Assembly: GCA_026982235.1 (NCBI GenBank)
Contig: JALSHM010000397.1
Coordinates: 1 to 49,507 of the forward strand
Source of the DNA: Robiginitomaculum sp.
GTDB lineage: Bacteria; Pseudomonadota; Alphaproteobacteria; Caulobacterales; Maricaulaceae
DNA length: 49,507 bases
Direction: 5' to 3'
A program made the position numbers and the translations under genes. The notes under the pieces are model-generated. The model did not search any database, was not told the DNA's origin, and was given only the letters and a program-made list of their open reading frames with translations. Shown piece after piece: positions 21,114 to 49,507 of the stretch (its first letter is position 1; every line of letters starts with the position of its first letter).

Positions 21114-21449
21114 ATGAAAATTGAACATTTGACTCCAAATAACGCAATATTGCAAGAATTGGGCACACGGCTTGCCCGGATTCGCAAACAGCAGGGTTAC
21201 TCACAACTGCGTTTGGCCAACGAAGCCGGAATCGGGGTGGCTACCCTTCGGCGCATAGAAGCGGGCCATGACAGCCAGATGGAGACGTGGCTGAAGCTTA
21301 TGAAATCTCTCCAGATGATCACCGCCATTGATGATCTTTTACCTAAGAATTATAGCTCGCCAATGGCAGAAGCTTTATCCGACAGAAAAACTAGAAAGAA
21401 AAGAAATAACGCGCCTTCTGGTTCTATATGGGGCGACGAAAAACCATGA
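21114..21449 (+). CDS. hipB: HipB-like XRE-family HTH antitoxin
   Basis: 111 aa with LARIRKQQGYSQLRLANEAGIGVATLRRIEAG. Its stop overlaps the hipA start (ATGA). Confidence 0.8.
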   Translation: MKIEHLTPNNAILQELGTRLARIRKQQGYSQLRLANEAGIGVATLRRIEAGHDSQMETWLKLMKSLQMITAIDDLLPKNYSSPMAEALSDRKTRKKRNNAPSGSIWGDEKP

Positions 21450-28580: not shown

Positions 28581-29360
28581 TTATTCGAGCAGGGAAAGGT
28601 ACTTTCCATTGCGATATTCTTCGGCGTTTTTATATATTCTTCGTACCTGTTGCTTAAGCGCAGAGTGGCCATCTCCCCATTCCATATTCACATATTCTTC
28701 GCCCATGAGGGCAATGGCTATATCGCGGTAATCACCGCCATCTCTTTTAGCGCGCAATGCAATAAGATATTTTTGCAATCGTTCCGTATTCCTACGATAG
28801 CCAATTTGACTTAATTTACCGCCGCGTGAGCGGTGCAAAGCAATAATTTGATGGATGGATTTCATTCGCTTATTTGAGTGCAATCCGCCATCTACACGGA
28901 ACTCTACCAATGCTTTATCGTCGATTGGGTGCGGGCTATCACAATACAGTTGAAACCAGTAACGCCTACTTTTTAGCACAATATGTCGGCTCCCATTTAT
29001 GCTTTCAAACAGTGTCTTACGACAACAAAACTCTTGCAGCATAACCGTATCTGACGTCCGCCCAAAATTACGGTTATCTGTCTGTGTGTCATCTTGTGGC
29101 CGTCCAAGGCGAACATGAACGGTAGCTGGATAGTATGAGGGCTTCCAAAAGACATCTGCTTCCATCGCGTTCAAGTCGGGATCAACAAAGAATAATAAGC
29201 CCCATTTTCGAGCTTTTTCATACCGCCTATTACCAATAAGTAGGCGGCAACCACTTTCTAGTTCAACCATTTTTGGACTGTATTTTAGGCCGTCAATGCA
29301 GTCGTGGCGGTAGTCCATATTTTCGCGCAACATATCCCATGCCCATGCCGCGCTTGGCAT
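28581..29360 (-). CDS. DUF2285-domain transcriptional activator-like protein (FseA-like)
   Basis: 259 aa. The N-terminal AWAWDMLRENMDYR resembles the LAWEFLRRNPxY motif of DUF6499/DUF2285 proteins from alphaproteobacterial ICEs. Confidence 0.6.
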   Translation of the reverse strand: MPSAAWAWDMLRENMDYRHDCIDGLKYSPKMVELESGCRLLIGNRRYEKARKWGLLFFVDPDLNAMEADVFWKPSYYPATVHVRLGRPQDDTQTDNRNFGRTSDTVMLQEFCCRKTLFESINGSRHIVLKSRRYWFQLYCDSPHPIDDKALVEFRVDGGLHSNKRMKSIHQIIALHRSRGGKLSQIGYRRNTERLQKYLIALRAKRDGGDYRDIAIALMGEEYVNMEWGDGHSALKQQVRRIYKNAEEYRNGKYLSLLE

Positions 29361-34817: not shown

Positions 34818-35417
34818 TTAGCTATTCCAGAAAACGTGAATTTCTTTATAGCCTGTCTCTATAGAGAATATGTCGCCGCTTAATTCCATGTCACGCGCCA
34901 TAGATTTATAGTCGATATAGTATTTTAGGGTTTTGGGAATCTCGGTGGTGGACTCGGTGAGTTCCTCGGCAAAGTCTGCTAAGCTTTCATACTCGCCGTT
35001 ATAGCGCTCAAGGGCGGATTCTGCGTCCTTGACATGCCCTTTGGGTGCAATATCGCCGCCATAGTTTTCCAGTAACTTGCCGCCAAAGCCTGAACAGTTT
35101 TCCAAAAACTCGGCAATCTCAACCACACGGGCAAAGCTGTCATATTCGTTTATGGTTACACCATCGAAATTCTCGTAATCGTGAATTGCCCATTCCTCGG
35201 CATCGGGGATGGGGGATGATTTAAGGATGGCGCGAACTGCGTCCTGAATACTGTCCTCGTCCTCAACGTCTATCCAAGAGCCGTGCAAGTGGCCGTTATT
35301 GTAGGCGGCAAGGCAAGCCACATAGATTCTAGGGGTGTCGGGGTCTAGCACGAAAGGTGCGGTTAAATTCCCTGTAGGTTGGGCTTGGCTCGGTGTTGCG
35401 GTTCTAGGTTCGGTCAT
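34818..35417 (-). CDS. ardA: ArdA antirestriction protein
   Basis: I place the start at the ATG at 35417 (MTEPRTA...). It has the signature IYVACLAAYNNGHLHGSWIDV and a very acidic C-terminal half. The track's N-terminal extension to 35657 runs through the hairpin. Confidence 0.85.
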   Translation of the reverse strand: MTEPRTATPSQAQPTGNLTAPFVLDPDTPRIYVACLAAYNNGHLHGSWIDVEDEDSIQDAVRAILKSSPIPDAEEWAIHDYENFDGVTINEYDSFARVVEIAEFLENCSGFGGKLLENYGGDIAPKGHVKDAESALERYNGEYESLADFAEELTESTTEIPKTLKYYIDYKSMARDMELSGDIFSIETGYKEIHVFWNS

Positions 35418-35448
35418 GGGGCAGTCTCCTCTTTTTTCTCCGCACCAG

Positions 35449-35631
35449 CCTCCGCCGGAAGGGCGGGGATGGGCGGCTAAGAGGCCCGCCAGCAGGGCGC
35501 ACAAGGGTGCGGGGCAAGGGTTTTGGTAGGCAGACCAAGACAAATTATATGCATATAAAGCCAAAGCCCTTGCGCCGTGACCGCGCCCTGCTATCAGGGC
35601 CGCCCGCCCATCCCCGCACTTTCGAAGGAGG
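35449..35631. repeat. ~183-bp GC-rich imperfect inverted repeat (bulged hairpin) upstream of ardA
   Basis: Three arm pairs match: 35449-35476 with 35604-35631, 35491-35500 with 35583-35592, and 35514-35526 with 35561-35573. The apex is the perfect palindrome TTATATGCATATAA (35545-35558). Confidence 0.85.
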
Positions 35632-35705
35632 CGTTCATGATGTGGGGATTTAAACAAAGAAAGAATTCAATCGCCAAAATACATGGATGTGCTATAACGT
35701 GAATC

Positions 35706-37265
35706 ATGTCCGATGAAATTAAAAAATTTGAACAATTTTGGGATGTTTTATCCCGGGCTGGTATTGATGAGCGGGCGCGGGTGCGGGCGGAGCGGTTGGT
35801 TGCCAAGACCGGGGAGGCAATTCCTGTTGTTATCGCTGAATTGGGGTTAGCGTCTGATGCGGTTGTTGTTGATGCGTTTTGCGAAGTTACAGGTTTACTA
35901 AAAACGGATGTTACGCAAATCTCTGATAACTCTATTTTGGAGGACACTATCAGCACAGAGTATTTGCGTTCTCACAGAGTTTTACCTTTGTCGCAGAATG
36001 AGAGTGTGCTTGATGTCGCGATAATTGATCCATTTGATCTGGATGCCATCACGGCTTTGGAGTTTGCTTGTAAGGTTAAAGTATCACCGTCAATCATGAC
36101 GCTCACGGATTGGCGGGCGGCCTTTGACCAGTTGTATGGACGACAGGATGATATCGATGAAACCGAAGCAGCGTTGACGGGAGCGGGTTGGGCCGATGAT
36201 ACGCAGCGATTGAAGGATTTATCCAATGAAGCACCTATTGTGCGTATGGTTGATCGGTTGTTGACGGATGCTGTGGATAAGGGAGCTACTGATATACATG
36301 TGGAGCCTGCTCCAAACATTACCCGCATCCGTGTTCGCATAGACGGGGCATTGCAAGCTTTGCCAGACGAAGCACCTGAACTTGCCGCGTTGTTGGTCTC
36401 GCGGGTTAAGGTGCTCTGCGATATGGATGTGGCTGATAGGCGCCGCCCGCAAGATGGCCGGACATCTGTTGCCGTGCGTGGTCGTCCAATCGACCTACGG
36501 GTCTCTACAGTGCCAACGGCTTACGGAGAGAGTATGGCTATACGGATATTGGACCGCGCTGCCTCTATGCTGTATTTAAGCAAACTCGGATTTTCTGATT
36601 ATGACCGGGAATTGATAGAGACCGTATTAATAACTCCCAAGGGCATTTTTCTGGTCACCGGGCCGACGGGTTCTGGTAAGACAACTACGCTCTATGCAGC
36701 ACTGAATAAACTACGGCAGACCCAACGCAAGATACTAACGGTGGAAGACCCGATCGAGTATTTCTTTGAAGATGTAAATCAGGTGCAGGTCAACGAAGCG
36801 GCGGGTGTTACCTTTGCCACGACTTTACGCTCATTCCTACGTCAAGACCCGGATATACTAATGGTCGGCGAAATACGCGACGGAGAAACTGCGCGTATCG
36901 CTGTGCAGGCGGCGCTAACCGGGCATTTGGTATTATCCACTCTGCATACCAATGATGCCGTCTCGTCCATTGCACGGCTCAAGGACATGGGGGTTGAAGA
37001 CTACCTCATCGCGGCAACACTAAGCGGTGTCACGGCACAAAGACTTGTGCGCAAGAAAAGCGGAACAGGCCGCACTGTTATTGCTGAAAGTTTTCTCTGT
37101 ACACCAGAGATAACCAAAGCCATCAGATCAGGTGCTCCCGAAGATGAAATTGTCAAACTCGCGAGCAAACAAGGCATGGTATCTCTACGGCAAGACGGAG
37201 AAGCCAAAGCAAAAGCCGGACTGGTCAATCTTGATGATGTTTATATTGCTACAGGGCAGAACTAA
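35706..37265 (+). CDS. gspE: GspE/PilB-family secretion ATPase
   Basis: 519 aa with a T2SSE_N/MshE-like N-domain, Walker A GPTGSGKTT, Asp box, Walker B ILMVGEIRD and His box STLHTND. It lacks the tetracysteine segment. Confidence 0.9.
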   Translation: MSDEIKKFEQFWDVLSRAGIDERARVRAERLVAKTGEAIPVVIAELGLASDAVVVDAFCEVTGLLKTDVTQISDNSILEDTISTEYLRSHRVLPLSQNESVLDVAIIDPFDLDAITALEFACKVKVSPSIMTLTDWRAAFDQLYGRQDDIDETEAALTGAGWADDTQRLKDLSNEAPIVRMVDRLLTDAVDKGATDIHVEPAPNITRIRVRIDGALQALPDEAPELAALLVSRVKVLCDMDVADRRRPQDGRTSVAVRGRPIDLRVSTVPTAYGESMAIRILDRAASMLYLSKLGFSDYDRELIETVLITPKGIFLVTGPTGSGKTTTLYAALNKLRQTQRKILTVEDPIEYFFEDVNQVQVNEAAGVTFATTLRSFLRQDPDILMVGEIRDGETARIAVQAALTGHLVLSTLHTNDAVSSIARLKDMGVEDYLIAATLSGVTAQRLVRKKSGTGRTVIAESFLCTPEITKAIRSGAPEDEIVKLASKQGMVSLRQDGEAKAKAGLVNLDDVYIATGQN

Positions 37266-38479
37266 TGACCAAGTTTAGCTACAAGGTACAGGGCGCGGAC
37301 GGGCGGGCACAATCCGGTATTGTTGAAGCTGCCAGCAAATCTGGGGCGCTGGAGGTTTTGCTTTCGCGGGGGCAGACGCCTTTGCGGTTACATGCGGTTG
37401 GAGATAAGTCTGAATTTCAAAACTGGTTTAAACCTGCACCCAAGGAGTTCAGCGTTAAGGATGCGGCGGAGTTTTCGGGGGATTTATCACGGTTGCTCAG
37501 TTCGGGGTTTTCTTTGCATCAGGCTTTGCAAATGACTGCGGTTTCGGCGGGCTCCAAACCTGCTCGCGCTTTGGCAGAAAAGTGCGCAGAGCAAGTGCAA
37601 AAAGGCGGCAGTTTACACAGTGTATTAGTCAAAGAAACTTCCGGTCCGGCATTGGCATTGGCTGGGCTGGTACAGGCTGGAGAAACCACCGGGCATTTGG
37701 AAAAAGTGCTGCAGGATGCGTCGGGCAGTTTTGGTGCCAGTGCCGAGTTTAAAGAAAAACTGGGTTCGGCTTTGATCTATCCGGCAATTATTATGTTTAT
37801 GATTTCGCTGACTTTGCTCATATTTTTTACGATGGTGTTGCCGCGTCTCCGGCCATTATTTGAGGATGTAGGTGATAGGCTACCGGCTATGACCAAAGTC
37901 TTACTAGGCTTTGGTGATTTTTGCGAAAATTGGGGGCCGTGGCTGGCTTTGGGCTTGGTTATGTTGCTGATTGGTATGCGTGTGCGGCCAGGGCTGAGAC
38001 AGAAAATAAAACATTTTTTTGACAGTATCTTGTTAGGTCGGCTTGGTATGGGTGCCCCTAAATTGGCTGGGTTTGCCGCCTATGCCCGCACGCTAGGCCT
38101 GTTGGTCAATTCGGGTGTGCCGTTACCCGCCGCTAATTCTGTTGCCGCCGGGGCTGTGGCTAATCTGGTGTTAAGTGAGAAATTTGAAAGTCTGACATCT
38201 CCACTTCGCGGCGGTGAAAATCTATCAAAATTATTGGGAAAACTTTCAGAAGCCCCGGAGCTGTTGGTACGAATGGCGGTGATTGGTGAACGCTCAGGTA
38301 AGCTAGGTCCGGCGCTGACCGACGCAGCAGGCATTTTGGAACGCTCTGCCCGTACTCGTATGGAGCGGTTGATGGCCGCGCTTACACCAGCAATTACAAT
38401 AATATTGGGTATTATTGTTGCGCTGGTTGTCGGGGCGTTATTCTTGGGCTTGGCGAGTTTAACCGAGATTGATGTATGA
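37265..38479 (+). CDS. gspF: GspF/PilC-family inner-membrane platform protein
   Basis: 404 aa with two T2SSF-like repeats and three TM segments. Its start overlaps the gspE stop. Confidence 0.88.
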   Translation: MTKFSYKVQGADGRAQSGIVEAASKSGALEVLLSRGQTPLRLHAVGDKSEFQNWFKPAPKEFSVKDAAEFSGDLSRLLSSGFSLHQALQMTAVSAGSKPARALAEKCAEQVQKGGSLHSVLVKETSGPALALAGLVQAGETTGHLEKVLQDASGSFGASAEFKEKLGSALIYPAIIMFMISLTLLIFFTMVLPRLRPLFEDVGDRLPAMTKVLLGFGDFCENWGPWLALGLVMLLIGMRVRPGLRQKIKHFFDSILLGRLGMGAPKLAGFAAYARTLGLLVNSGVPLPAANSVAAGAVANLVLSEKFESLTSPLRGGENLSKLLGKLSEAPELLVRMAVIGERSGKLGPALTDAAGILERSARTRMERLMAALTPAITIILGIIVALVVGALFLGLASLTEIDV

Positions 38480-38940
38480 TGCTAAGCAAACAGGCTGGAT
38501 ATACTTTGACCGAATTACTTGTGGTTCTTATGTTGTTAACCTTGATGACCGCTATCGGGCCGGTGGCTCTACAAAAGTTATTACCCGGCATGGCGGTAAA
38601 TAGTGCGGCCCAAACACTACAAGCAGATTTGCAAACCCTACGCGTCCGTAGCTTGACTTCGGGGAGTATGGGCGAATTACGCATTGAGAAAAATGGGCGA
38701 GGCTATATACTGCTGGTTGCAGAGCAAATAATACGGCGTCGCAGCTTGGGGAATGCAGTTCGTATTCGCAGTGTGGATGGTGAAGAATATGGCAACGAGG
38801 ACAGCATTATTACGGCAGATGCAAGTGGGAGGTTATCCGGCTTGTCATTACGCGTTGAGCGCGGTAAACGTGTCAAATCTATTCAGATTAACCCTGTATT
38901 CGGGACGGCAGAAATTGTAAGTGCTTATGTGGAGCAATAA
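38476..38940 (+). CDS. gspH: Minor pseudopilin, GspH-like
   Basis: Prepilin leader KQAG/YTLTELLVVLMLL with Glu at +5. Size (154 aa) and pattern are GspH/FimT-like. Confidence 0.65.
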   Translation: MMLSKQAGYTLTELLVVLMLLTLMTAIGPVALQKLLPGMAVNSAAQTLQADLQTLRVRSLTSGSMGELRIEKNGRGYILLVAEQIIRRRSLGNAVRIRSVDGEEYGNEDSIITADASGRLSGLSLRVERGKRVKSIQINPVFGTAEIVSAYVEQ

Positions 38941-39337
38941 ACCAGATTATTATAAAAAAGCCGGGAATCAGGAAAATGGCTTTATTCTCAGCGAAATTCT
39001 TGTGGCCATGGTAGTATTGGCGATTGCGGCTATCGGCTTTTTACAAACCATACAATTTGCAGCAAGCAGAATGCATAATTCAAAGGTAAGTCATACGCAA
39101 ACGGTCTTTGCACTCTCACTTATGGAAGATGCAATTGAACGGGATTTGTATGATAAAGAAGGTGGGGAGGGCGTTGACAAAAAAACCAAGCTCAATTGGC
39201 GTGTTGTCGTTGTTCCGGATAAAAACCGTCAATCACAAAGCTCGGAACAACCAAGCCTAAAAACAGTCAGTGTCGAAGTGTGGAAAACGGAAACTCGTAA
39301 GTTAAAACTCACCAGTATGAAATGGTCGGGGCGTTAG
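38921..39337 (+). CDS. gspI: Minor pseudopilin, GspI-like
   Basis: Leader ...NQENG/FILSEILVAMVVLAIA. About 136-138 aa. The start is either GTG 38921 or ATG 38927. Confidence 0.6.
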   Translation: MLMWSNKPDYYKKAGNQENGFILSEILVAMVVLAIAAIGFLQTIQFAASRMHNSKVSHTQTVFALSLMEDAIERDLYDKEGGEGVDKKTKLNWRVVVVPDKNRQSQSSEQPSLKTVSVEVWKTETRKLKLTSMKWSGR

Positions 39338-39338
39338 T

Positions 39339-39884
39339 ATGAGCGCCGGGTTTACATTAACAGAGGTGCTTGTGGCGCTCATGATCTTGGGGGCAACGGC
39401 AGGAACAATGAGTACGACTATGGGGACGGCGTTTAAATCTTACGAGCGACTTGATAGCAGTTCATCTGATTTACGCAAACAATCCAAGCTCAAACAAGTT
39501 ATGGCAGAAGTGTCAGGCCGGTATTGGCTCGCGGACGGTAAAGTCAAAGAAAAGAAACTAACCGAAATTCCTGTGAACGGGCCGTATTTTTGCAAGTTAG
39601 CCATTGAAGAAAAGCAAGCTGATATTTGGGGTCTTTATGCCATAAGTGAAAGCGGTGAGAAAACGCAAATAATAGCGTCTAAAACAGAATTGCGCTTTAG
39701 AGCGATTGGTCAGCGCAGAAAATTGGGTGTGACCCGGAACACCCCTTATGATTATCACACCTTGATATTGGAGCAATTAGAAGATAGCTTGGTCAGTGAG
39801 TGGAACCCCATCATATCTGTAGCGTTAAAGGTAGATGCCGACCCCGCCTGCCGATTTGATATTGTGGGGCTTCAATGTCGATAA
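39339..39884 (+). CDS. gspJ: Minor pseudopilin, GspJ-like
   Basis: Leader MSAG/FTLTEVLVALMILG. 181 aa. Confidence 0.6.
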   Translation: MSAGFTLTEVLVALMILGATAGTMSTTMGTAFKSYERLDSSSSDLRKQSKLKQVMAEVSGRYWLADGKVKEKKLTEIPVNGPYFCKLAIEEKQADIWGLYAISESGEKTQIIASKTELRFRAIGQRRKLGVTRNTPYDYHTLILEQLEDSLVSEWNPIISVALKVDADPACRFDIVGLQCR

Positions 39885-40861
39885 CTAATGAGTTGGTAGA
39901 AAAAAACTTGGAACGATATATAAGTAATGGAACATTACTTGGTGACGGCTTAGATATTGTTGCTAGGTTTGGGAAATCTCTTTCGAAGGCATTCGGATGG
40001 AACAGCGCCAATGCTATAGGCATAATTTATGCTGAGCCGCCAATCGATTTGCTTGAACAGAAATTGACTTTGAATGTAACAACCCGTGCAAGTGCAAAGC
40101 GCGCCGCAAATTTAATGATAACAAGGCTGTCGCCGCTCCATGAAGATCAAATTGAATGGGATATTGTTGGTCCCCATACTTCGCTAGATAACGGCGTTGA
40201 TAACACCGAAAATGTTGGTGCCCAAATAGTGAATACGAAGAAACAATATACGCTCGGGATTGTCCGCAAAACAGATTTGGAAAATTGGGATAGATTACAA
40301 ACACAGCACAGTTCGTTAAAAACCATCGGGCGTAGCGGCGATGTATACCAGTTTATCAGTACCCTTAGTCGTCAAACCAAACGTAAGCAAACTCTGTTAG
40401 GTATATTGGCATTTATGGCCTGCTATATTGGTTTGTTGTGGGGTATGGCGCAGTGGGCCAGCCGACCTGTAAGAATTGCGAACCATTGGCAAGAACAAAC
40501 TCGCACTATCCGATTAGACATCCAGAATATGCGTATAGAATTGAAGAAAAATAAAGCCCGCTCAATATTGATGGAAAGTTATCAATCAAGTTCGCACCGA
40601 GTAAATTTGTTAGATATCCTTGCCATCACGGCACAAACCATGCCGGACGGCGGTTGGATACGTGAAATAAACTTATCTGCAAACCAAATAAAGATAAGCG
40701 GGACGTCTGATAATCCGTCCAAGCTTGCTGTGCAAATGGAAGCCAAGCCATTTATTGGACAAGTGCAATTGGGTGCAGTATCCGCAGATCGTTCCAGTGG
40801 ATTGCAGAGGTTTACCCTGACGATTATCCTCGCTGACAATTTGGCGAGGGAAAAACCATGA
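39875..40861 (+). CDS. gspL: GspL-like (PilM/PilN-type fusion) assembly protein
   Basis: 328 aa with a cytoplasmic N-domain, a single TM (LLGILAFMACYIGLLWGMAQW) and a PilN-like periplasmic C-domain. Assignment also rests on its position before a GspM-like gene. Confidence 0.55.
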   Translation: MSITNELVEKNLERYISNGTLLGDGLDIVARFGKSLSKAFGWNSANAIGIIYAEPPIDLLEQKLTLNVTTRASAKRAANLMITRLSPLHEDQIEWDIVGPHTSLDNGVDNTENVGAQIVNTKKQYTLGIVRKTDLENWDRLQTQHSSLKTIGRSGDVYQFISTLSRQTKRKQTLLGILAFMACYIGLLWGMAQWASRPVRIANHWQEQTRTIRLDIQNMRIELKKNKARSILMESYQSSSHRVNLLDILAITAQTMPDGGWIREINLSANQIKISGTSDNPSKLAVQMEAKPFIGQVQLGAVSADRSSGLQRFTLTIILADNLAREKP

Positions 40862-41439
40862 GCAAAACCAGCCAAAACACTAACCGACTTGTTCAAGGAG
40901 TAGGCCTCGTCTTAGCGCTCCTATTGTTACTCCCATTTATTTTAATGGGCGGAAAAATGTTGAATGCATATACCGACCTGAAGGATGTTCGGTTTCAATC
41001 AGAAAAACTATTGCGACAACAACAAACCTTAAGACAAGACTTGCAAATTAGCCAAGAAAACCTTTCTGCATTACAACGGGACTTTAAACCTTTAGACGGG
41101 AGTATAGCCAAAGCCAATGCTATACTTCAAACCCGATTGCGTAAGTTGATTACGGTGGTTGGCGGTACTGTAGAAACCAGCTCTCAAGTCAAAATAAGGA
41201 ATGATATTAGGGCGGATGCGTCACTATCCCTTAGCCCGGTTTCAGTTAATGTTCGTTGGAGTGTGAGTGAAGTGGGCTTGGGCGAATTCTTGGCGAATAG
41301 TGCTGCGCCCAAACAAAACCTAAAAATAGACAGTCTTCTCATTCGGCGTAGACAGGGCACAGCCAGCCTACTTGATATTCGCATGCAATGTTCCGCACTC
41401 TGGCAAGACCCGTCTTTGGACAGTAAGGGGAGACGGTAA
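40858..41439 (+). CDS. gspM: GspM/PilO-like assembly protein
   Basis: 193 aa with an N-terminal TM, a coiled coil and a ferredoxin-like C-terminal pattern. It has 4-nt overlaps with its neighbours. Confidence 0.5.
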   Translation: MSKTSQNTNRLVQGVGLVLALLLLLPFILMGGKMLNAYTDLKDVRFQSEKLLRQQQTLRQDLQISQENLSALQRDFKPLDGSIAKANAILQTRLRKLITVVGGTVETSSQVKIRNDIRADASLSLSPVSVNVRWSVSEVGLGEFLANSAAPKQNLKIDSLLIRRRQGTASLLDIRMQCSALWQDPSLDSKGRR

Positions 41440-41912
41440 TGAAAATAACGACAAAAATATTTGGCTTTATTGTTGTGAGTTTACTGCTCGGTTTAGCGGC
41501 TAAAACACTTCCCCATAAACAAGTAATCGTTACCCCGTTGAATGTAGAGATAAGTCCTCAAACTGTTACCTCTATACCTGCCATTGATGCATCGCTCTTG
41601 TTGCAGCGTTATCAATCGCGTCCTTTATTTGTCTCAAAAATTGCACATGATGTCGGGGCTGGGAACGAAACAGACATAGTAATTGTCAAAGAATGGTCAC
41701 CATTTGATTATCAACTTATCGGGATTAGTCGTGTTAGCAGCAAGACAACGGGTTGGTTTAAAAATATTGATACAGGCGATCTTGTTTCTGGGCGCCAAGG
41801 TATGCAATTGGGAAATTGGACACTGGATGCTATGTCTGGTACTGAGGCGAAATTGTCTTCGGAAGGTAAAACTGAAAGTTTAAAGTTGTTTCAAGGGGGA
41901 GAAGCGCGTTAA
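41439..41912 (+). CDS. GspC/PilP-like small bitopic protein (HR-domain candidate)
   Basis: 157 aa with an N-terminal TM. It lies immediately upstream of the secretin gene. There is no PDZ or coiled-coil extension. Confidence 0.4.
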   Translation: MKITTKIFGFIVVSLLLGLAAKTLPHKQVIVTPLNVEISPQTVTSIPAIDASLLLQRYQSRPLFVSKIAHDVGAGNETDIVIVKEWSPFDYQLIGISRVSSKTTGWFKNIDTGDLVSGRQGMQLGNWTLDAMSGTEAKLSSEGKTESLKLFQGGEAR

Positions 41913-41927
41913 GGTGCGGTTTTGTAG

Positions 41928-44039
41928 ATGTATATGGGATTAGGTTTGAAAAGTTCGCAAAATAACACACGTATATTGAACACATTGCTGTGCGGTATAG
42001 CCGTCTTTGCGGTGACGGCTTGTCAGACAATGGATGGTCAGACTTTGCCCAAACGTACAATCGGTGATAATGTGCTTGACGGTGTATTGCATCCAGACAC
42101 GGAAATTGATACAGAAGCGACGAAAAGAACACTAACCCAGAAAACCACTAGAAAAACTGTCCCATCAGTTATGCAGGATGTTCAGTTGGGCGCTGGCCAA
42201 TATGTGAAAGCCGGAACGGCGCAAACGGACTTTGTGACCCAAAGGTCGGGGCGTGTTGAACTCGCCTTTGATAAGGCTCCTGTGGAGCAAATCATCAATG
42301 CGGTTCTTGGTAATATACTGGGAGCTGATTTCATTATTGACCCTGCCGTTAAAGGTGAAGTGACTTTGCGTACAGCTAAATCCGTGAAGAAATCCGATAT
42401 TCCTGCGCTTTTAGAACAAGCCTTACGTCTGGTTAATGTCTCACTTATTGAAACTGCGCCCAATACATTCACTGTCATCCCATCATCACAAGCAAAACGG
42501 TTTGCCCGGGCTCCGGGTTTGGTCGGTAATGGCGTAAGAGGGGGCATGGTGATTGCGCCTTTGGAATATATATCGGCGTCAGAAATGGCGCGCGTATTGC
42601 AACCATTCACCCCACAGGGCAGCAGCATAAAAGCAGATAGCAAACGAGAAGTTCTTATCCTGTCCGGTGAACCTGCTCAAATCAATGTACTCTTGGATAC
42701 AATGGAAATGTTTGATGTGGATTGGTTGGCGCAAATGTCGTTTGGGGTGTTTGAAACACGTTATGCGCCACCGGAAACGCTGATTGAAGAACTTGATAAA
42801 ATATTTGGCGGTGCAAATGGCCCTATAGGTTCTCAAGTGGAATTTATCCCAATGCCTCGGCTTGGATCCGTTTTGGTAATTGCCAAGCGGGCTCACAGAA
42901 TTGCTCAAGCCGAAAAGTGGATACGTAAACTTGACCGTAATGTAGGCGGGGAAGGCCGCAGGTTTCAATTTTTGTCAATTATTAACGCAGATGCGGAGGA
43001 GTTGGCTGACACAATTACTGATTTGGTTGGTGACGAAAGTAGCGGTGGTAATCAATATGATAGCGCTCGATCTGAATCCGATACGCAAAACCAAATTCAG
43101 GCGCAAAGACCGGCGCAAACAAATGGAGGCTCTAGGCAGAAATTGCGCATACGCGCTGATTTAGCAACAAACTCTCTTATAATTTTTGGTACAGACGAAG
43201 AATATCGCCAGATAGCTGACCTCGTGCAAAAACTGGATGTATTACCAGATCAGGTTTTAATCGAAGCCGTAATTGCCGAAGTTACCTTGAACGATGAATT
43301 GCGTTATGGTGTGCAGTGGTTTTTTGACAGTCGTACGGGGGGGACAGCGACTTTTTCTGACGCGGGTACTGGCGCGGTGTCTTCGCGCTTCCCCGGCTTT
43401 GCCTATGCATTCTCGGGCAATTATGTCAAAGTCGCTATGAACGCATTGGCTGCGGTTACCGATATAGAAATTGTGGCTTCCCCGCAAATTATCACGCTAG
43501 ATAACCACACCGCAACCTTACAGGTAGGTGATCAAGTCCCCATCGTTACCCAGTCAGCTGTTAGTGTCGATAACCCCAATGCCCCAATTGTTAATTCCGT
43601 ACAATTTAGGGACACAGGCATTTTGTTGACGGTCACGCCACGGGTCAATGACGGTAATATGGTGTTCTTAGAGGTGGCACAAGAAGTCAGCAATGCTGTG
43701 CCAACCCTGACATCTGGAATTGATGCGCCAACTATTCAGCAAAGACGTTTTGATACGGTGGTAACGATTGCCGATGGTGACACATTGGCTCTGGGGGGGT
43801 TAATCCGCACCAGCCGCACCGTCGGTGATACAGGCATCCCGATACTGAAGGATATTCCGCTCCTCGGCAATGCCTTTAGCGGTAAATCTGACAGTCGTGG
43901 TCGGACGGAATTGGTGATTTTTATGACGCCCCATATCATCCGTTCGCGCGAAGATGCCAGACGCGCCAATGAGCATATCAAGAGCCGTTTGCAACGCTTA
44001 AAACTTACAAATTTTAGTGATGAACAAACGCAGCCTTAA
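41928..44039 (+). CDS. gspD: GspD-family secretin with a lipoprotein-type signal
   Basis: 703 aa. The C-terminal secretin domain includes VIAEVTLND...YGVQW, ...ASPQIITLDNHTATLQVG..., ...IPILKDIPLLGNAF. The N-terminus has N0/N1-like repeats. A lipobox VTAC has its Cys at residue 32. Confidence 0.9.
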   Translation: MYMGLGLKSSQNNTRILNTLLCGIAVFAVTACQTMDGQTLPKRTIGDNVLDGVLHPDTEIDTEATKRTLTQKTTRKTVPSVMQDVQLGAGQYVKAGTAQTDFVTQRSGRVELAFDKAPVEQIINAVLGNILGADFIIDPAVKGEVTLRTAKSVKKSDIPALLEQALRLVNVSLIETAPNTFTVIPSSQAKRFARAPGLVGNGVRGGMVIAPLEYISASEMARVLQPFTPQGSSIKADSKREVLILSGEPAQINVLLDTMEMFDVDWLAQMSFGVFETRYAPPETLIEELDKIFGGANGPIGSQVEFIPMPRLGSVLVIAKRAHRIAQAEKWIRKLDRNVGGEGRRFQFLSIINADAEELADTITDLVGDESSGGNQYDSARSESDTQNQIQAQRPAQTNGGSRQKLRIRADLATNSLIIFGTDEEYRQIADLVQKLDVLPDQVLIEAVIAEVTLNDELRYGVQWFFDSRTGGTATFSDAGTGAVSSRFPGFAYAFSGNYVKVAMNALAAVTDIEIVASPQIITLDNHTATLQVGDQVPIVTQSAVSVDNPNAPIVNSVQFRDTGILLTVTPRVNDGNMVFLEVAQEVSNAVPTLTSGIDAPTIQQRRFDTVVTIADGDTLALGGLIRTSRTVGDTGIPILKDIPLLGNAFSGKSDSRGRTELVIFMTPHIIRSREDARRANEHIKSRLQRLKLTNFSDEQTQP

Positions 44040-44934
44040 ATCCATTCTTGTTCTAGGATCTAATGAGGGTACGGCCTTGGTTGCAGCTTTGTGGCTCTCT
44101 CTCATACTGGCACTGTTGGGGATTGCTGCAATCTCATTGGTAAAATCAAATGTCCTAGAAACCAAAGTCCAAACCCGTCTTGACAAGGCGTGGGTAGTCG
44201 CAGAAGGCGGGGTGGCTATTGCAACTTATCATATAGCCGATTCCCGCAATCCATGGCGTCCACGTACAGAGAACTACACGGCAAAAATTGGTGATGATGA
44301 GCTAACAATTTATGTCAATAGCCCACAAGCGAAAATTGATCTTAACGGGGCTGTTCCCGTATTGTTGGCAAGTCTATTCAGCGAACTGGGGTATGAACAA
44401 GACCTGGCTAATCAGCTCGGTGATAGGATAGCCGACTGGCGCGACGGCGATGATTTTATTCATCTAAACGGTGCGGAAGCCCGCGCTTATTTGCAAGCAG
44501 GGTTGGATTACAAGCCAAGCAATGCGCCTTTTAAAAATGTATCAGAACTTGGTCGTGTATTAGGAGTAGACGCTAACATAATGGCGTGTGCCGCGCCGTT
44601 CCTAACCATTTATGCACCAAGTGGACGGGTTGACCCGTATCTTTCCCGTAGCGTTGTGCGACGTGCTGCTGGGCTACGGGACACGCCACCACCAACAATC
44701 CCCGGTGTGCGCCGTACAAGTTTGGCTGGGCAAGTGTTTGAAGTGCAAGCTCTTACGCCGATTAGCAAACATTCCGCAGCCCGTATAACAGCTGTCATTC
44801 GCTTTACGGGCGACCCGTCCGATCCAGTTTGGCGCCACCGCATTACACGCGATGTAGTTCTGTTAAAACAGGCCACATCCGAAGAACAACTACCGATTAC
44901 ATGCCCGGCACTAGCACAAGGAACCGCTCAATAA
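44017..44934 (+). CDS. gspK: GspK-like minor pseudopilin
   Basis: 305 aa. The hydrophobic N-terminus has no Glu5. The T2SSK pattern is KIDLNGA...IADWRDGDD...NGAEARAY...KPSNAPFKNVSELGRVLGV. Confidence 0.8.
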   Translation: MMNKRSLKSILVLGSNEGTALVAALWLSLILALLGIAAISLVKSNVLETKVQTRLDKAWVVAEGGVAIATYHIADSRNPWRPRTENYTAKIGDDELTIYVNSPQAKIDLNGAVPVLLASLFSELGYEQDLANQLGDRIADWRDGDDFIHLNGAEARAYLQAGLDYKPSNAPFKNVSELGRVLGVDANIMACAAPFLTIYAPSGRVDPYLSRSVVRRAAGLRDTPPPTIPGVRRTSLAGQVFEVQALTPISKHSAARITAVIRFTGDPSDPVWRHRITRDVVLLKQATSEEQLPITCPALAQGTAQ

Positions 44935-44984
44935 AGCTCTGTTTTGTATTGCGCTTAGACACATTTATCAGTTAAGGTAAATTT

Positions 44985-45434
44985 ATGGAACAGACGAAAT
45001 ACGCAAATTTAAAACATCAACACGGATATACGTTGACCGAGCTACTCGTCGTTTTGGTCATCATCTCCTTGCTCACAGCCATCATAGCGCCGCGCCTAAT
45101 AGGTCGTATCGGTAAAGCCAAATCAACAACCGCCCGCACCCAAATAGAAAATCTAATCAGTGCGCTTGATATATACCAACTGGATATGGGAGAGTATCCA
45201 AGCACAGAACAAGGCTTAGCCGCACTCATAATCAAGCCGGAACTCGGTGAAGAACAATCAAATCTATGGTCCGGCCCATATATGCGCAGAGGCAAAGTCC
45301 CAAAAGACCCCTGGAAAAACCCGTTCATCTATACAAGGTCAGTTGACGGCGAAACAATCCTAGTAAAATCTTTAGGTAAAGATGGCCAAATAGGCGGTGA
45401 AGGCGAAAACCGTGACATTACGAGTGATGATTGA
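44985..45434 (+). CDS. gspG: GspG major pseudopilin
   Basis: Leader ...QHG/YTLTELLVVLVIISLL, followed by the canonical GspG core (AKSTTARTQIENLISALDIYQLDMGEYPSTEQGLAAL...DPWKNPFIY...SLGKDGQIGGEGENRDI). Confidence 0.92.
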   Translation: MEQTKYANLKHQHGYTLTELLVVLVIISLLTAIIAPRLIGRIGKAKSTTARTQIENLISALDIYQLDMGEYPSTEQGLAALIIKPELGEEQSNLWSGPYMRRGKVPKDPWKNPFIYTRSVDGETILVKSLGKDGQIGGEGENRDITSDD

Positions 45435-45521
45435 TTTGTTTTAATTAATTTCTAAAAGGGGTTGTGGTTGTGATATGTTTTTGTTAACTATAACTTGGGT
45501 GAAGAGATTGGGGATTCGGAT

Positions 45522-46232
45522 ATGCGAATATTTAGGTTTAGGCTTGGTTCATATTTTAATGTATTAAGCTACTTGATTGTTTGTTTCTCTTATACCGTAG
45601 TTTTTACGCCAACCGCATCCGCTGAATGCTATACATATGATGATCTGGGTCGGCTCATCACAGTCGTTTATGACAATGATGGTGCGACAGGGGACAATGC
45701 CAAGCGACAGTATAATCTTGATAAGCACGGTAATCGAAAAACAGTTGAGGATGCCATTATTGGTGGCGGTGTTTGTGCCCAACCGACAGGTAGCACAACG
45801 CAGGGGGCAGATGGTGCCGCTGATGTAGATTATGGGGCTTCCGCAAATGCCAGCGCGGAGCCGCCGAGTAATGTTCCGCCCATAGCCAATGATGATGTAA
45901 TAGCCGTTGAGGTCAATAGCAGTATTACTGTGACGCCTTTGGATGATGACACGGATGCTAACTCGACCGATGTGTTAGTCTTGGCAGGGTTTGTTAATAA
46001 TAATGCGTCTTTGATCAGTGTCTCGCAATCAGGGAATTCAATCTTTGTGACTGCATGGAGTAGCGCGGGCACGGCCACCATTACCTATACGATTAGCGAC
46101 GGCAATGGCGGTACAGATACGGGATTGATTAGTGTGACGATTACGGACGCTTCTGGTGGTATTTCCAGTGGGGATCCTTGCCTGCTTGATCCTAGTCTAG
46201 CAGGGTGCGGAGGAGGTGTCGGCAATCAATGA
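45522..46232 (+). CDS. Secreted protein with YD (Rhs-type) repeats and a cadherin/Ig-like domain
   Basis: I place the start at the ATG at 45522. The signal peptide ends TASA/E. YD-repeat motifs are YTYDDLGRLITVVYDN and YNLDKHGNRKTV. A cadherin-like block follows (PIANDDVIAVEVNSSITVTPLDDD...ATITYTISDGNGGTDTGLISVTI). Confidence 0.65.
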   Translation: MRIFRFRLGSYFNVLSYLIVCFSYTVVFTPTASAECYTYDDLGRLITVVYDNDGATGDNAKRQYNLDKHGNRKTVEDAIIGGGVCAQPTGSTTQGADGAADVDYGASANASAEPPSNVPPIANDDVIAVEVNSSITVTPLDDDTDANSTDVLVLAGFVNNNASLISVSQSGNSIFVTAWSSAGTATITYTISDGNGGTDTGLISVTITDASGGISSGDPCLLDPSLAGCGGGVGNQ

Positions 46233-46290
46233 TGGTTAAGTGTGCAATAAGCCGTGTCATACACATTTTGACCTGCGCTGGGGCGGAGTT

Positions 46291-46833
46291 ATGAGCGACC
46301 AAGCTTGGAAAGTGCTGGCTGGTGCCGTTATTGTTGCTCTGGCAATATTTGCTGTGCTGCAATTTGGGCATATGGGGCGTAAGAAAGCGTTTAGGCAAGA
46401 CAGTGGTGACGCTACAGTGACAGAGACACAGCAAAGTACAAATAGCCCTAGCAAGCCCATGTCCATGCAAAGGGCAGAGCAGCAAATTGATATTGTACAG
46501 GCTGAACAAGTCGCGGAATCAGATATTGAGGCCATGGCCACCGAACAAGAAGGTTTGGCACCGCTTGAACAAGATGCCCGCCTTTATGCCAAAGCAACAG
46601 CCAATATGGGCATTACCCAGATCCGCGCCCTCCAACAAAGTAGGCAGGGGGTAATTGTGCGCGATATAAATGGACACCTTATCCCTCCATACGCAGAGCG
46701 TGAACTATGTAATGCTAACAAGAAATGTAAAACAATCATAACCAACACAAAAACAGGCGTAACTGTCTGGGATGGCAGTTGGAAAGGTGGGATACACCCA
46801 ACAGGAATTGGTAAGGAAGTGGTAAAAAAATGA
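46291..46833 (+). CDS. Membrane-anchored hypothetical protein
   Basis: I place the start at the ATG at 46291 after GGCGGAG. It has one N-terminal TM (WKVLAGAVIVALAIFAVLQ). Its stop overlaps the start of the next large ORF. Confidence 0.5.
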   Translation: MSDQAWKVLAGAVIVALAIFAVLQFGHMGRKKAFRQDSGDATVTETQQSTNSPSKPMSMQRAEQQIDIVQAEQVAESDIEAMATEQEGLAPLEQDARLYAKATANMGITQIRALQQSRQGVIVRDINGHLIPPYAERELCNANKKCKTIITNTKTGVTVWDGSWKGGIHPTGIGKEVVKK

Positions 46834-49507
46834 TGATGAGAAATTTAATGAGAGTTTTGATTGTTGGCAAAAACATATCGGCATTAATAGTTTTGATGGT
46901 TTTGTGCTCATTCAATTCACTTGCAGGTGTACCACATGCTGCTTTTGACGCCGGTCGGTCCGTAAATCTCGCGGAAGCCCAACAGTATTTTACCACAGAT
47001 GAAACGAACAAACCCAGTACAAGTGTTAGAACTGCACACATAACAAATAGTGACTTAGATAATTTGTTGGCTCTAACTGCTAAAGGTTTAAATTATGATC
47101 CTGAAAGAATTTACGAGTTTGTCAGGAATAACGTAAATTTACATCCTGTATTTGGTGAAAGTAAGGGCGCTTACGGTGCCCTCATCGATTTTGAAGGTAC
47201 AGCATTTGATCAGTCTAGATTAGCTATGTTACTTTTACATGAAAGTGATGGAAAGCATAATCAAAGTATCTCTGCAAAAATCCATATAGGTAAAGTAACG
47301 CTAACGCCCTCGCAATTATCTAGTTGGTTGGGTGTTTATGATAAAAAAATGGCATGTAGATATTTTGCTAATGGTGGAATACCTTCTTCTTTAGCTAATT
47401 GTGGAGTATTATCAGGTAATGTAACATCGAATGTTGATATTGCTCATGCCTGGATTGATGTCACTATTAATGGTCAAGTAGAACGGTGGGACTTAGCCTT
47501 CAAAGAAATGGATTATTTGCCCAAACTAGGAAATTTAAGAAGTACCGCTAGAAATAATAGTGAGGTTCCTGCACAAAAATTGCTTATTGGAGCAGAAAAA
47601 AACTTTGACGGTTTAGTCCCATATATTAGGGGAATAAACAAAAATGGCTTGATGAACGATTTAACGGATGCGTCGATAGGTTTGGATGCTTTTCTTAAGT
47701 CAAATGACAATTATTCTAGGCAATTGGATGATGTTGTTGGTGGCCACAAGATCGTCAGGTATAAAAATGGAATGAGCAAAGCGCCATTAAGCAATTACAC
47801 AACTTGGTCGGCAGGGGGGTATCAAGATATTCCAGATATATACAGGATAATATTGGATTTGGATGTATGGTCAGTCGGCTATCCCGCTAATCCTGACTAT
47901 TCTGGGCATACAGCAGAGAATCTAATTAGCTCTATATTGTCAGCAGATGAAGTATATGGTCGTCTGTTTCGGATTAAGGCCCGGACTAATTGTAATGATG
48001 GTATGTCAGGCGATGATATTCATATAACAGGCTCATATTGTCTCATGTTAAGTGTTGGTGATACCAATGTTGTCGAAGTTATGCGCGACACGATGTTCAT
48101 GATTCCGTCTGCTTTTGGCAAAGAGGTACCTAGTTTAAAGAAAAATATTGATATCACTATAGCCTACAATCATCCCTATGCTAACAGCTATAGTAGTTCT
48201 CAAACAAATGCTGGAGATTTTCAAGATGGGCACATTATAAAAAGGGCTTCGGTTCTGTCGGATACAATAATAGTTAATGGCTGGGGAGCGACTTCAGCCG
48301 ATCTTATAGCTATGTGGAATAAACGTTTGGGGCGAGATGGAAAACCGCCTAGTTTTGGACATCCCTGCGGAATTTCAGACCCGGAAGTTACGAGAGATTA
48401 TAGCTGTTTAAAGCCAAGACGTGCATCGAATATAGTAAGACATAAGCTAGCAGCGTCCTATTTATCACAAAGTAGTTTGTTTTATGACATGTTAGCATCA
48501 TTAAGTACTACGAATATTATCCATCATAGAACAATTGGATTTGTTTATGGAACTCATGTTGTGAAAGATATGAACCAAGCTCAACCTACAGGAGGTGTAG
48601 GTACACCCGTTGCAGCCACAAATGCACCATACTTCACTTCTGCTGACGACAGTATATATTTTGATATCCGCCCCTCTTGGAATGTTATTTCTGACACCAA
48701 CAATTCGAATATTGAGACTAGTGTGAAAAGAAGTTTGGCGGTCATATCATCTGCGCTTGAAGGGTTAGTGTTCAAACACGTACTTGGTTCCTATGATGTG
48801 GTTACCACCGGAAGCAAATTTGCTTGGGCAAGTTCAGGGCCACCAAGAGATACGGATGGGCCGGCTAGAAAGCTCTTTAATGGCGACTTTGTTGATGATT
48901 CTGATGCACCATTTCCCTATACTATTCCCAAGTTTTATCTTTTTAATCCCAGCAATTATTCTATTGAGGTAGCAGGGAATTTACTAACAGAAGAAAACTA
49001 TTTACGACTACCCGGGGGAGTTTTTCTGGGCCTGCCCCACCCAAAACTTTTATCAATTTTTCAATTAGATAAGTATATAGCGAGTGGTTATTCCGTCGTG
49101 ATGCCGTCAGAAACTTTTTTGGGCCCCGGGCCTGTCAAAGGAACTACGCTGGGTATTTATACAAGAGTGAGTTGCTTGAATTATGGGGCTGTTGGTGGTG
49201 GCGGATGCGCAACAACGAGGACGCAAGTGCATAACCCTCATCCGAGCCGTGGCAGTGCGATGGTGGCTTGGAATTCGGACACTAGCAAAATCGGGCACGC
49301 TATCGTTAGACGTTTTGGGGTTGTTAAGGGAGGGGGTGCGTCTTTTGCTCCAGGTGAAATAGCACAACCTAAACCACCAAAGGCTGATACATTCATTGAC
49401 CCATCTGATAAATTAAAGCTTGCCTATGGAGTTGACACAAAGAGTGGTTCTTTCTCATACAGCACTCCAGAAATGGTTGTTGGTGAAGGCACCGGCCGAA
49501 ATAGCTT
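46830..49507 (+). CDS. Large secreted protein (at least 892 aa, 3' end outside the window) with a transglutaminase-like core and an Rhs-type motif at the window edge
   Basis: Frame 3 is open from ATG 46830 to the window end, checked codon by codon. The ORF is absent from the track because it has no stop. The N-terminus is signal-like (MMMRNLMRVLIVGKNISALIVLMVLCSFNSLAG). See the corresponding finding for the TGase-like block. The last residues, GVDTKSGSFSYSTPEMVVGEG, resemble the start of Rhs cores. Confidence 0.8.
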   Translation, partial: MMMRNLMRVLIVGKNISALIVLMVLCSFNSLAGVPHAAFDAGRSVNLAEAQQYFTTDETNKPSTSVRTAHITNSDLDNLLALTAKGLNYDPERIYEFVRNNVNLHPVFGESKGAYGALIDFEGTAFDQSRLAMLLLHESDGKHNQSISAKIHIGKVTLTPSQLSSWLGVYDKKMACRYFANGGIPSSLANCGVLSGNVTSNVDIAHAWIDVTINGQVERWDLAFKEMDYLPKLGNLRSTARNNSEVPAQKLLIGAEKNFDGLVPYIRGINKNGLMNDLTDASIGLDAFLKSNDNYSRQLDDVVGGHKIVRYKNGMSKAPLSNYTTWSAGGYQDIPDIYRIILDLDVWSVGYPANPDYSGHTAENLISSILSADEVYGRLFRIKARTNCNDGMSGDDIHITGSYCLMLSVGDTNVVEVMRDTMFMIPSAFGKEVPSLKKNIDITIAYNHPYANSYSSSQTNAGDFQDGHIIKRASVLSDTIIVNGWGATSADLIAMWNKRLGRDGKPPSFGHPCGISDPEVTRDYSCLKPRRASNIVRHKLAASYLSQSSLFYDMLASLSTTNIIHHRTIGFVYGTHVVKDMNQAQPTGGVGTPVAATNAPYFTSADDSIYFDIRPSWNVISDTNNSNIETSVKRSLAVISSALEGLVFKHVLGSYDVVTTGSKFAWASSGPPRDTDGPARKLFNGDFVDDSDAPFPYTIPKFYLFNPSNYSIEVAGNLLTEENYLRLPGGVFLGLPHPKLLSIFQLDKYIASGYSVVMPSETFLGPGPVKGTTLGIYTRVSCLNYGAVGGGGCATTRTQVHNPHPSRGSAMVAWNSDTSKIGHAIVRRFGVVKGGGASFAPGEIAQPKPPKADTFIDPSDKLKLAYGVDTKSGSFSYSTPEMVVGEGTGRNS

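Follow-up and report, generated by a model that had tools for sequence, protein, structure and literature searches.

A probable two-gene Rhs polymorphic toxin with a cysteine-less transglutaminase-like head, encoded beside a type II secretion cluster on an integrative conjugative element

Results

The window analyzed here, a stretch of 49,507 nucleotides from Robiginitomaculum sp. (contig JALSHM010000397.1), ends inside a large open reading frame (ORF), hereafter ORF1 (46830 to 49507, + strand), which lies downstream of a type II secretion system (T2SS) gene cluster. We consider it probable that ORF1 encodes the N-terminal subunit of a two-gene Rhs polymorphic toxin that is linked to this T2SS and borne by an integrative conjugative element (ICE), the mechanism of the toxin being deduced from its genes. 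Translation of frame 3 gives 892 sense codons and no stop between ATG 46830 and the window end, in agreement with the reading made from the sequence only, and such an open frame in DNA of ~41% GC is far beyond chance. As that reading had also pointed out, ORF1 is missing from the supplied ORF track, because frames running off the source go unlisted in a mechanical ORF list. The ATG overlaps the TGA of the preceding gene (protein B) as ATGA, so that the two genes are translationally coupled, and a Shine-Dalgarno sequence, AAGGAAG, lies ~10 nt 5' of it.

The full gene was obtained by looking up the window's GspG, which led to two public contigs, L001 (ENA assembly) and L002 (Logan assembly). L001 is 100% identical to window positions 34985 to 49507 and extends 3.3 kb further, supplying the downstream sequence that the sequence-only reading had called for. 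There, ORF1 is complete and encodes 1305 residues, 892 of whose codons lie within the window, and its stop is located 1.24 kb beyond the window end, at the would-be coordinate 50747. The ORF1 sequence is 100% identical in these two independent assemblies, and neither a stop nor a frameshift interrupts its 1305 codons.

The N terminus of ORF1 has the appearance of a Sec signal peptide (residues 1 to 32, MMMRNLMRVLIVGKNISALIVLMVLCSFNSLA followed by G; 46830 to 46925, + strand), with a basic n-region, a hydrophobic core, and an SLA-G site recognized by inspection. N termini of this type were found in ~120 of 153 family members with a crude hydrophobic-stretch filter.

Downstream of the signal peptide lies a transglutaminase (TGase)-like domain devoid of the catalytic cysteine (residues ~71 to 235; 47040 to 47534, + strand), an assignment that draws on PF01841 matches in the family, an AlphaFold2 (AF2) model, fold neighbors, and a census of alignment columns. 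The TGase-like block claimed earlier, with Ala in place of the nucleophile Cys and with the His and Asp retained, was recovered at the same residues. G123-T124-A125 occupy 47196 to 47204, with T124 at 47199 to 47201 and the Cys-equivalent A125 at 47202 to 47204; D127-Q128 (47208 to 47213), H206 (47445 to 47447), W208 (47451 to 47453), and D221 (47490 to 47492) lie further along. PF01841 (Transglut_core) is matched by 14 of the 19 N-terminal-only family members, with a best E value of 9.4e-10 and scores of 30.7 bits for P0001 and 24.1 bits for P0003 (gathering cutoff [GA], 23). The AF2 model computed from a 19-sequence alignment reaches a pLDDT of 89 to 95 over residues ~71 to 235, an earlier 5-sequence model having been set aside (pLDDT, 28). 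It displays the expected helix/strand order of the TGase core fold, with a helix beginning at residue 125 and strands carrying H206 and D221. When this model was compared with the PDB by Foldseek, no match reached significance, but ranks 1 to 7 were all occupied by proteins of the TGase fold (FXIIIa, TG2, the CPR-C4 protease, and LapG).

The loss of the nucleophile is not specific to this gene, because among ~150 representatives the Cys-equivalent column holds Pro (82), Ala (54), Asp (8), Ser (5), or Gly (1), and never Cys. Absence of the Cys is thus apparently ancestral in a family under constraint, rather than damage peculiar to ORF1. H206 and D221 are each present in 149 of 153 rows, and K112, G113, D120, G123, T124, F126, D127, Q128, W208, P222, and K225 are likewise near-invariant; ORF1 keeps nearly all of these residues, the exception being L222, where the family has Pro. 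We considered that a different conserved Cys might stand in for the nucleophile and rejected this idea. Indeed, the helix region 105 to 140 is Cys-free in 160 of 161 rows, and the only conserved cysteines form one pair, both present in 138 rows and both absent in 23. Such covariation is consistent with a disulfide, as expected for an exported protein, and C176 (47355 to 47357) and C191 (47400 to 47402) are likely so bonded in ORF1. A literature search turned up no published link between a TGase-like domain and Rhs proteins.

We read this head as a noncatalytic recognition module. Alternatively, it may be an active enzyme using a non-Cys nucleophile or another chemistry, for instance Thr124/Ser with the His206-Asp221 pair, and might cut peptidoglycan or a target surface protein, or process the toxin complex, rather than bind a ligand. 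This would fit the presence of Thr or Ser at position 124 in 144 of 152 members, the near-invariance of G123, F126, D127, Q128, K112, D120, H206, W208, D221, P222, and K225, and the fact that the conservation profile identifies the head as the most conserved part of the protein; moreover, the proteases LapG and CPR-C4 are among its structural neighbors. However, more than half of the members have Pro at position 125, and 8 have Asn at position 124; the His and Asp are also kept in noncatalytic TGase-fold binders such as those of the Rad4/XPC type. To our knowledge, all characterized members of the TGase/papain-like fold use Cys. We therefore judge an active head to be unlikely, though deserving of attention, and retain the noncatalytic recognition module in what follows.

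The head is followed by a conserved middle region of ~600 residues (~236 to 860; 47535 to 49409, + strand), over which the top 150 matches align with the family profile. It combines mixed beta and helical elements and carries the motifs HPY (448 to 450) and NGWG (483 to 486), while AF2 confidence is patchy over its length. No match to this region was found in Pfam, NCBIfam, or the PDB by profile and phmmer searches. It is a candidate for the receptor-binding or secretion-recognition part of the protein.

The window then closes on the start of an Rhs shell. Residues 866 to 892 (49425 to 49507, + strand), the last ones encoded in the window, read YGVDTKSGSFSYSTPEMVVGEGTGRNS, with the terminal motif YGVDTKSGSFSYSTPEMVVGEG, and resemble the DUF6531 entry motif of such shells; within the window, only this entry motif is present, and the YD repeats of ORF1 lie beyond. 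The proposed Rhs/YD entry was supported by the complete protein: residues 868 to 945 align collinearly to residues 594 to 671 of P0004 (E value, 1e-3), a segment assigned to Pfam DUF6531 in that protein (residues 592 to 649), and a PF05593 RHS repeat is found at residues 1245 to 1280 (32.5 bits; GA, 22). Scanned against Pfam and NCBIfam, the part of ORF1 within the window gave no match, and phmmer and profile searches against PDB sequences returned nothing relevant. In total, ORF1 carries ~440 residues of YD shell, corresponding to the first third, and then ends without an Rhs core or a toxin.

The shell is continued by a second ORF (ORF2), which overlaps ORF1 by 4 bp on L001, carries a separate signal peptide at its N terminus (MMFVLRRIRVFLAFLVIGVLWVSTASSAFA), and contains many YD repeats (PF05593, 62.5 bits; TIGR01643 also matches). 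L001 breaks inside a repeat, and its last 50 bases match, at two places, a contig of a metagenome-assembled genome labeled Robiginitomaculum sp. (L005). This contig holds three copies of the 3' part of an Rhs shell, namely two full copies of 1566 bp that are 98.5% identical and a partial third of ~188 bp that is ~92% identical to them. The Rhs-associated core is present in all three: every copy ends in the core motif DPIGYxDQMNLYNYVxNDPVNxxDPTG, followed by a different C-terminal (CT) tail. CT1 (~175 residues) precedes a 98-residue protein with a transmembrane segment, and CT2 (~170 residues), which matches PF00545 Ribonuclease of the barnase family (30.2 bits; GA, 24), precedes an acidic ORF of 117 residues; these two small ORFs are candidate immunity proteins. 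Two of the shell copies are ATG-started orphans. The polymorphic toxin that had been anticipated beyond the window thus exists, with its core and tails, but it is not carried by ORF1, being found instead on the second ORF and on orphan cassettes.

The physical link between ORF2 and this array comes from the sequencing run that holds ORF1, a hydrothermal-vent metagenome, which also holds the array. Its unique parts have a depth of 13 to 19 and the shared repeat has a depth of ~42 (~3x). One contig of the run passes from the repeat straight into L001 17666 to 17695, joining ORF2 to the array repeat. Furthermore, in two related loci (L003 and L004), the second protein of the pair matches TIGR03696 Rhs_assc_core (73 to 76 bits) and continues into a divergent CT of ~185 residues, followed by a small ORF. 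On L005, the third orphan shell (2413 to 3837, − strand) bears a truncated CT3 with a ~35-residue tail, and the ~2.4 kb beside it (1 to 2400) show no convincing ORFs; together, they probably represent a decayed cassette. The CT and immunity segments are AT-rich (0.33 to 0.41 GC).

When a profile built on the N-terminal region was searched exhaustively with HMMER, 5070 clusters were retrieved at an E value of ≤1e-3 and 1158 at ≤1e-30, and the top 150 matches span the whole ~740-position profile. An initial impression of near-orphan status, given by a word-indexed search that returned just 3 to 4 relatives, was abandoned on this basis; because that search missed most of the relatives, rarity deduced from it is unreliable for divergent families. 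The family is large but undescribed, and looking up its clusters yielded neither informative names nor taxa. Its plasmid-borne relatives have been named by PGAP as RHS repeat-associated core domain-containing, DUF6531 domain-containing, and, once, "transglutaminase domain-containing protein." At one locus (L006, 2400 to 2640), P0001 (624 residues) and an overlapping DUF6531/Rhs ORF of 1363 residues are apparently one gene with a frameshift in an A-rich run, the two frames reading ...GAWLSVK and ...ITHLIGGGLKGGF, in agreement with P0004.

The top matches fall into two classes. The first comprises single chains of ~1900 to 2560 residues, 41 of 66 of which contain the Rhs core motif and then 137 to 318 further residues. 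The second comprises coreless proteins of ~1150 to 1900 residues with the conserved C terminus LRTCFKFDxxGNLISxTDPRAxxCP, and the end of ORF1 falls at the same repeat position. By BLASTP, P0002 aligns to residues 20 to 1383 of the single-chain P0006, and the mature second protein of L003 aligns to residues 1388 to 2069; the same collinearity was found for the pair of L004 and for five other single-chain members. Since the split pairs are collinear with single chains, ORF1 and ORF2 together correspond to a single Rhs protein split at a constant position, the second half having acquired a signal peptide.

The base composition of ORF1 sets it apart from its surroundings. Its GC content is 40.8% in the window, against 47.5% in the remainder, and the last 2678-bp segment is the second lowest in GC of 469; the value of about 28% given earlier for 47041 to 47100 was reproduced (28.3%). 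GC at third codon positions (GC3) is 0.31 in ORF1, 0.41 to 0.50 in the upstream genes, and 0.58 in ORF2, and the break coincides with the borders of ORF1 (L001 11846 to 15763 compared with its flanks; window 46830 onward). The N-terminal subunit therefore looks swapped as a cassette, which suggests that it may be exchanged in this form. The same contrast could indicate that ORF1 is an AT-rich remnant of recent acquisition, now decaying and unable to work with ORF2, and the window copy is indeed too divergent for a PF01841 or DUF6531 match. Against decay, the 1305 codons are intact and identical in independent assemblies, the near-invariant residues of the family are nearly all kept (exception, L222), ORF1 is translationally coupled at both ends, and it terminates at the conserved fission point of the family. 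A remnant is thus extremely unlikely, and we treat ORF1 as a functional subunit.

The genes upstream of ORF1 comprise, as claimed, a T2SS, a YD-repeat protein, and a membrane protein. The T2SS cluster consists of 11 genes on the same (+) strand with minimal gaps (35706 to 45434). It opens with gspE (35706 to 37265) and gspF (37265 to 38479), both from precomputed Pfam matches, followed by three pseudopilin-like genes (38476 to 39884), a PilN-domain/GspL-like gene (39875 to 40861; Pfam PilN), a GspM-like gene (40858 to 41439; Pfam T2SSM_b), and an ORF of 157 residues with no assigned role (41439 to 41912). The secretin gene gspD (41928 to 44039; NCBIfam TIGR02517, 438 bits), gspK (44017 to 44934; Pfam T2SSK_1st), and gspG (44985 to 45434; NCBIfam TIGR01710, 150 bits) complete the cluster, both NCBIfam matches being equivalogs above the cutoff. 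From its position, this T2SS is the likely exporter of the Rhs complex.

Two small partners separate gspG from ORF1 on the same strand. Protein A (45495 to 46232), whose true start is probably ATG 45522, has a signal peptide ending in TPTASA before E, about two YD repeats (CYTYDDLGRLITVVYDNDG and YNLDKHGNRKTV), and a Big_9/cadherin-like Ig domain (Pfam Big_9, 2.7e-11; weak RHS_repeat). By inspection only, ORF1, ORF2, and protein A each show an n-region, a hydrophobic core, and an AxA-type site. A signal-peptide protein with two YD repeats lies directly upstream of the Rhs gene in at least 35 of 69 related loci, and its equivalent is named "RHS repeat domain-containing protein" on Burkholderia and Methylomonas plasmids. 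Protein B (46240 to 46833; ~180 to 197 residues) has one N-terminal transmembrane helix (WKVLAGAVIVALAIFAVLQF) and no family match in Pfam or NCBIfam.

Judged by its gene content, the window is an ICE carrying a putative weapon together with its likely exporter. Conjugation genes encode TrbI, TrbG/CagX, TrbL, a TrbJ-like protein, TrbE/VirB4, TrbB/VirB11, and the coupling protein TraG; a DUF3363 relaxase, a ParB-like protein, ArdA, a tyrosine integrase, and AbiE and HipA modules are also encoded. A look-up of the relaxase returned no record. The Rhs module follows the T2SS cluster without a gap and on the same strand, and the trb operon is on the opposite one. We evaluated the T2SS linkage in 80 related metagenome loci, scoring a locus as positive when at least two kinds of T2SS marker were found. 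Positive loci numbered 15 of 80, and 12 of the 33 whose flank on one side measured 8 kb or more, with the markers usually 0.6 to 4 kb from the Rhs gene. Some loci are redundant, and the independent count is therefore nearer 9 to 10; a rough estimate from T2SS gene density predicts linkage by chance at ~1%. On the Methylomonas plasmid pUP202, GspE/F/G, pseudopilins, PilN, and GspMb adjoin an "RHS repeat domain-containing protein" of 83 residues and an Rhs protein of 1973 residues. The idea that ORF1 is a T2SS substrate is therefore supported by recurrent gene linkage and by the published precedent discussed below, secretion itself being the inferred part. In one 34.7-kb contig (Ga0335069_10001731, loci L068/L069), two family genes of ~2127 to 2129 residues flank a single T2SS-like cluster.

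The conjugation genes raise the possibility that the module serves conjugation, as a surface adhesin or a contact-dependent toxin that stabilizes mating pairs or removes element-free neighbors, with export by the type IV secretion system (T4SS) through a periplasmic intermediate, as Ptl does for pertussis toxin. In its favor, the ICE of the window encodes TrbB/E/J/L/G/I, TraG, ArdA, a relaxase, and an integrase, relatives at L003, L004, L031, and L077 lie inside VirB/Trb clusters, 10 of 16 plasmid matches are on conjugative plasmids, and F-type tra genes are found near the relatives on Methylomonas plasmids. We briefly favored a T4SS-linked function on the strength of L003, L004, and the window, and rejected it when the census revealed the T2SS as the recurrent neighbor (15 of 80 loci, against 2 of 80 for T4SS markers). 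Moreover, many members are chromosomal, e.g., beside ruvABC in L007, or on contigs of >1 Mb, the module directly adjoins the T2SS genes and shares their orientation, on the strand opposite the trb operon, and the plasmid collection is plasmid-biased by construction. A role in conjugation is accordingly improbable in our estimation, and T2SS export remains the route we favor.

Discussion

Our analysis suggests a pathway for a T2SS-linked, two-chain Rhs toxin. ORF1, ORF2, and protein A would be exported by Sec, and the exported chains would assemble in the periplasm into a closed, TcB-TcC-like YD cocoon that encloses the toxin after its cleavage by the Rhs core. The adjacent ICE-borne T2SS would then release the complex to the cell surface or the medium. 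The head, made of the TGase-like domain and the middle region, may act as a noncatalytic recognition module for a receptor of the target bacterium or for the T2SS, and the toxin, for example an RNase, would kill cells that do not possess the cognate immunity protein. Orphan cassettes would permit toxin switching.

Several points weigh against this proposal. Secretion, assembly, and killing by the ORF1 family are deduced from genes alone, and a closed Rhs cocoon may exceed the width of the GspD channel, so that export might take place as unassembled parts or via lysis. Most related loci have no T2SS genes in the flank available, and the two closest split-type relatives, L003 and L004, sit inside VirB/Trb T4SS clusters. 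As for the protein itself, a Pfam scan of ORF1 gives zero matches to PF01841, and PF20148 (DUF6531) is unmatched even at an E value of ≤10. The TGase homology of ORF1 is therefore transitive, the window copy being unmatched while family members match PF01841; the profile search suggested by the sequence-only reading thus succeeded for 14 of 19 family members and failed for the copy at hand. The Foldseek E values, between 0.13 and 1.7, are not significant, and the TM-score is low for the whole 857-residue query. The near-invariant polar residues K112, D120, T124, D127, Q128, H206, D221, and K225 would also fit a catalytic site. Finally, the end of ORF2 was reconstructed across a repeat, and the CT that it carries is therefore uncertain.

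The closest published parallels are Rhs families of Xanthomonas (XRhs F VIII) and Ralstonia (RRhs F II) that are gspG-linked and for which T2SS export is predicted and functionally unconfirmed (10.1101/2025.05.08.652813). Compared by description rather than by sequence, these are, like the ORF1 family, polymorphic Rhs toxins tied to T2SS and not to T6SS (type VI secretion system) genes, with orphan CT modules, and diffusible delivery has been proposed for them (10.1101/2025.05.08.652813). Their linkage is, however, to chromosomal gsp genes, and the preprint makes no mention of a TGase-like domain, DUF6531, a two-gene split, a small YD partner, or ICE carriage (10.1101/2025.05.08.652813).

A functional precedent is provided by Bcn-A of X. 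perforans, a 1398-residue Rhs-family bacteriocin that requires accessory ORFs, whose activity is found in the >100-kDa fraction of the supernatant and is lost in a mutant of the T2SS secretin (xpsD) (PMC7259588). Again by description, Bcn-A shares with our locus an Rhs protein of similar size, a helper ORF with a signal peptide and Rhs/Tc similarity, and a downstream immunity gene. In contrast, its YD barrel is modeled from residue ~482, leaving an N-terminal region far shorter than the ~860 residues of ORF1; its accessory ORFs (124, 100, and 290 residues) differ in size and order, and no separate Rhs core/toxin half is described. We considered assigning it to the same family and decided against it on account of this architecture, keeping it as a functional precedent only.

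Other YD-repeat proteins share parts of this organization. The Rhs effectors of the T6SS (e.g., RhsA, Tse5, and Rhs1) have a DUF6531-type entry, a YD shell, an Rhs_assc_core with DPxG...Y.Y..N.P, a polymorphic CT with an immunity gene, and orphan modules. They differ in being single-chain, cytoplasmic proteins without a signal peptide, with PAAR/VgrG-binding N termini and Eag/DUF chaperones, none of which is present here. WapA of Bacillus subtilis, a Sec-dependent, T6SS-independent toxin of the Rhs type, combines a Sec signal peptide and YD repeats with a polymorphic CT and an immunity gene; unlike our system, it is a wall-anchored single chain from a Gram-positive bacterium, without a TGase-like head and with no outer membrane to cross. 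With the PF01841 superfamily, including LapG, the ORF1 family shares profile matches, the predicted helix at the nucleophile position, and the His/Asp strands. In every member examined, by contrast, the Cys is replaced (Pro, Ala, Asp, Ser, or Gly), a new invariant G-T-x-F-D-Q motif is present, and the domain is fused to an Rhs shell.

The resemblance to Tc toxins calls for separate consideration. Like ORF1/ORF2, TcB-TcC form a YD shell from two polypeptides, the second bearing the Rhs core (an aspartyl autoprotease) and a variable toxin. The locus might therefore encode a Tc-like (BC-type) toxin against eukaryotic cells, whose halves form a TcB/TcC-like cocoon docking on a separate translocator. 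The source is a hydrothermal-vent community, and host-associated vent bacteria are reportedly rich in YD-repeat toxins. However, Pfam and NCBIfam searches gave no SpvB, FG-GAP propeller, or VRP1 match in ORF1 and ORF2, and a Pfam scan gave no TcA-like match in the other large ORFs of the window. Unlike Tc components, both halves have Sec signal peptides, and a TGase-like head occupies the N terminus. The barnase-type RNase tail, the immunity-like ORFs, and the orphan cassettes are a hallmark of interbacterial polymorphic toxins, and the immunity genes and cassettes indicate bacterial rather than eukaryotic targets. We thus regard a Tc-like toxin as highly improbable and retain an interbacterial toxin released by the T2SS.

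The ORF1 locus bears on an unsolved question, namely, by what route Rhs toxins exit and enter cells when neither a T6SS nor a TcA translocator is available. A complete T2SS, a small YD partner, and both halves of the split shell form one co-oriented block on a mobile element, with a linked toxin/immunity array downstream; this is a compact system, transferable to a laboratory strain for a direct test of T2SS-dependent Rhs export. Throughout the family, the head has lost the nucleophile yet keeps the His and Asp and has a new GTxFDQ motif, which marks it as a conserved pseudo-enzyme, or else an unusual enzyme, whose ligand would explain targeting. Furthermore, the fission into two signal-peptide-bearing chains parallels TcB/TcC and offers a natural experiment on the assembly of a YD cocoon in the periplasm. 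That such loci are borne by ICEs and conjugative plasmids points to a joint spread of the weapon and, perhaps, of its exporter.

It is tempting, although we hold this only tentatively and rather doubt that all of it applies, to speculate that the element is a self-contained mobile weapon, an ICE with a dedicated T2SS and a Sec-exported two-chain Rhs cocoon. The Cys-less head would then confer T2SS export, receptor targeting, or both, the two-YD protein would be a third structural subunit, and the family would represent widespread (thousands of clusters), diffusible, contact-independent Rhs bacteriocins distinct from those delivered by T6SS or Tc systems.

Additional observations

The beginning of the window differs in organization from the rest of the element. 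A C-terminal fragment of TrbI (5 to 553, + strand) lies on the strand opposite the main trb operon and is followed by AbiEi/AbiEii, the tyrosine integrase (4821 to 6068), and an insertion sequence (IS) transposase (6762 to 7802, − strand). This region (5 to 7802) looks like an ICE boundary or a pair of tandem elements.

A HipA kinase toxin is encoded at 21428 to 22741 (+ strand). Between the HipA gene and the relaxase, a 539-residue protein (23338 to 24957, − strand) has a C-terminal half matching cytidine/deoxycytidylate deaminase and MafB19-like deaminase domains, and it could be a toxin-type or an anti-defense deaminase. Further on, the gene at 28581 to 29360 (− strand) encodes a RovC-type DNA-binding domain, described for a T6SS regulator.

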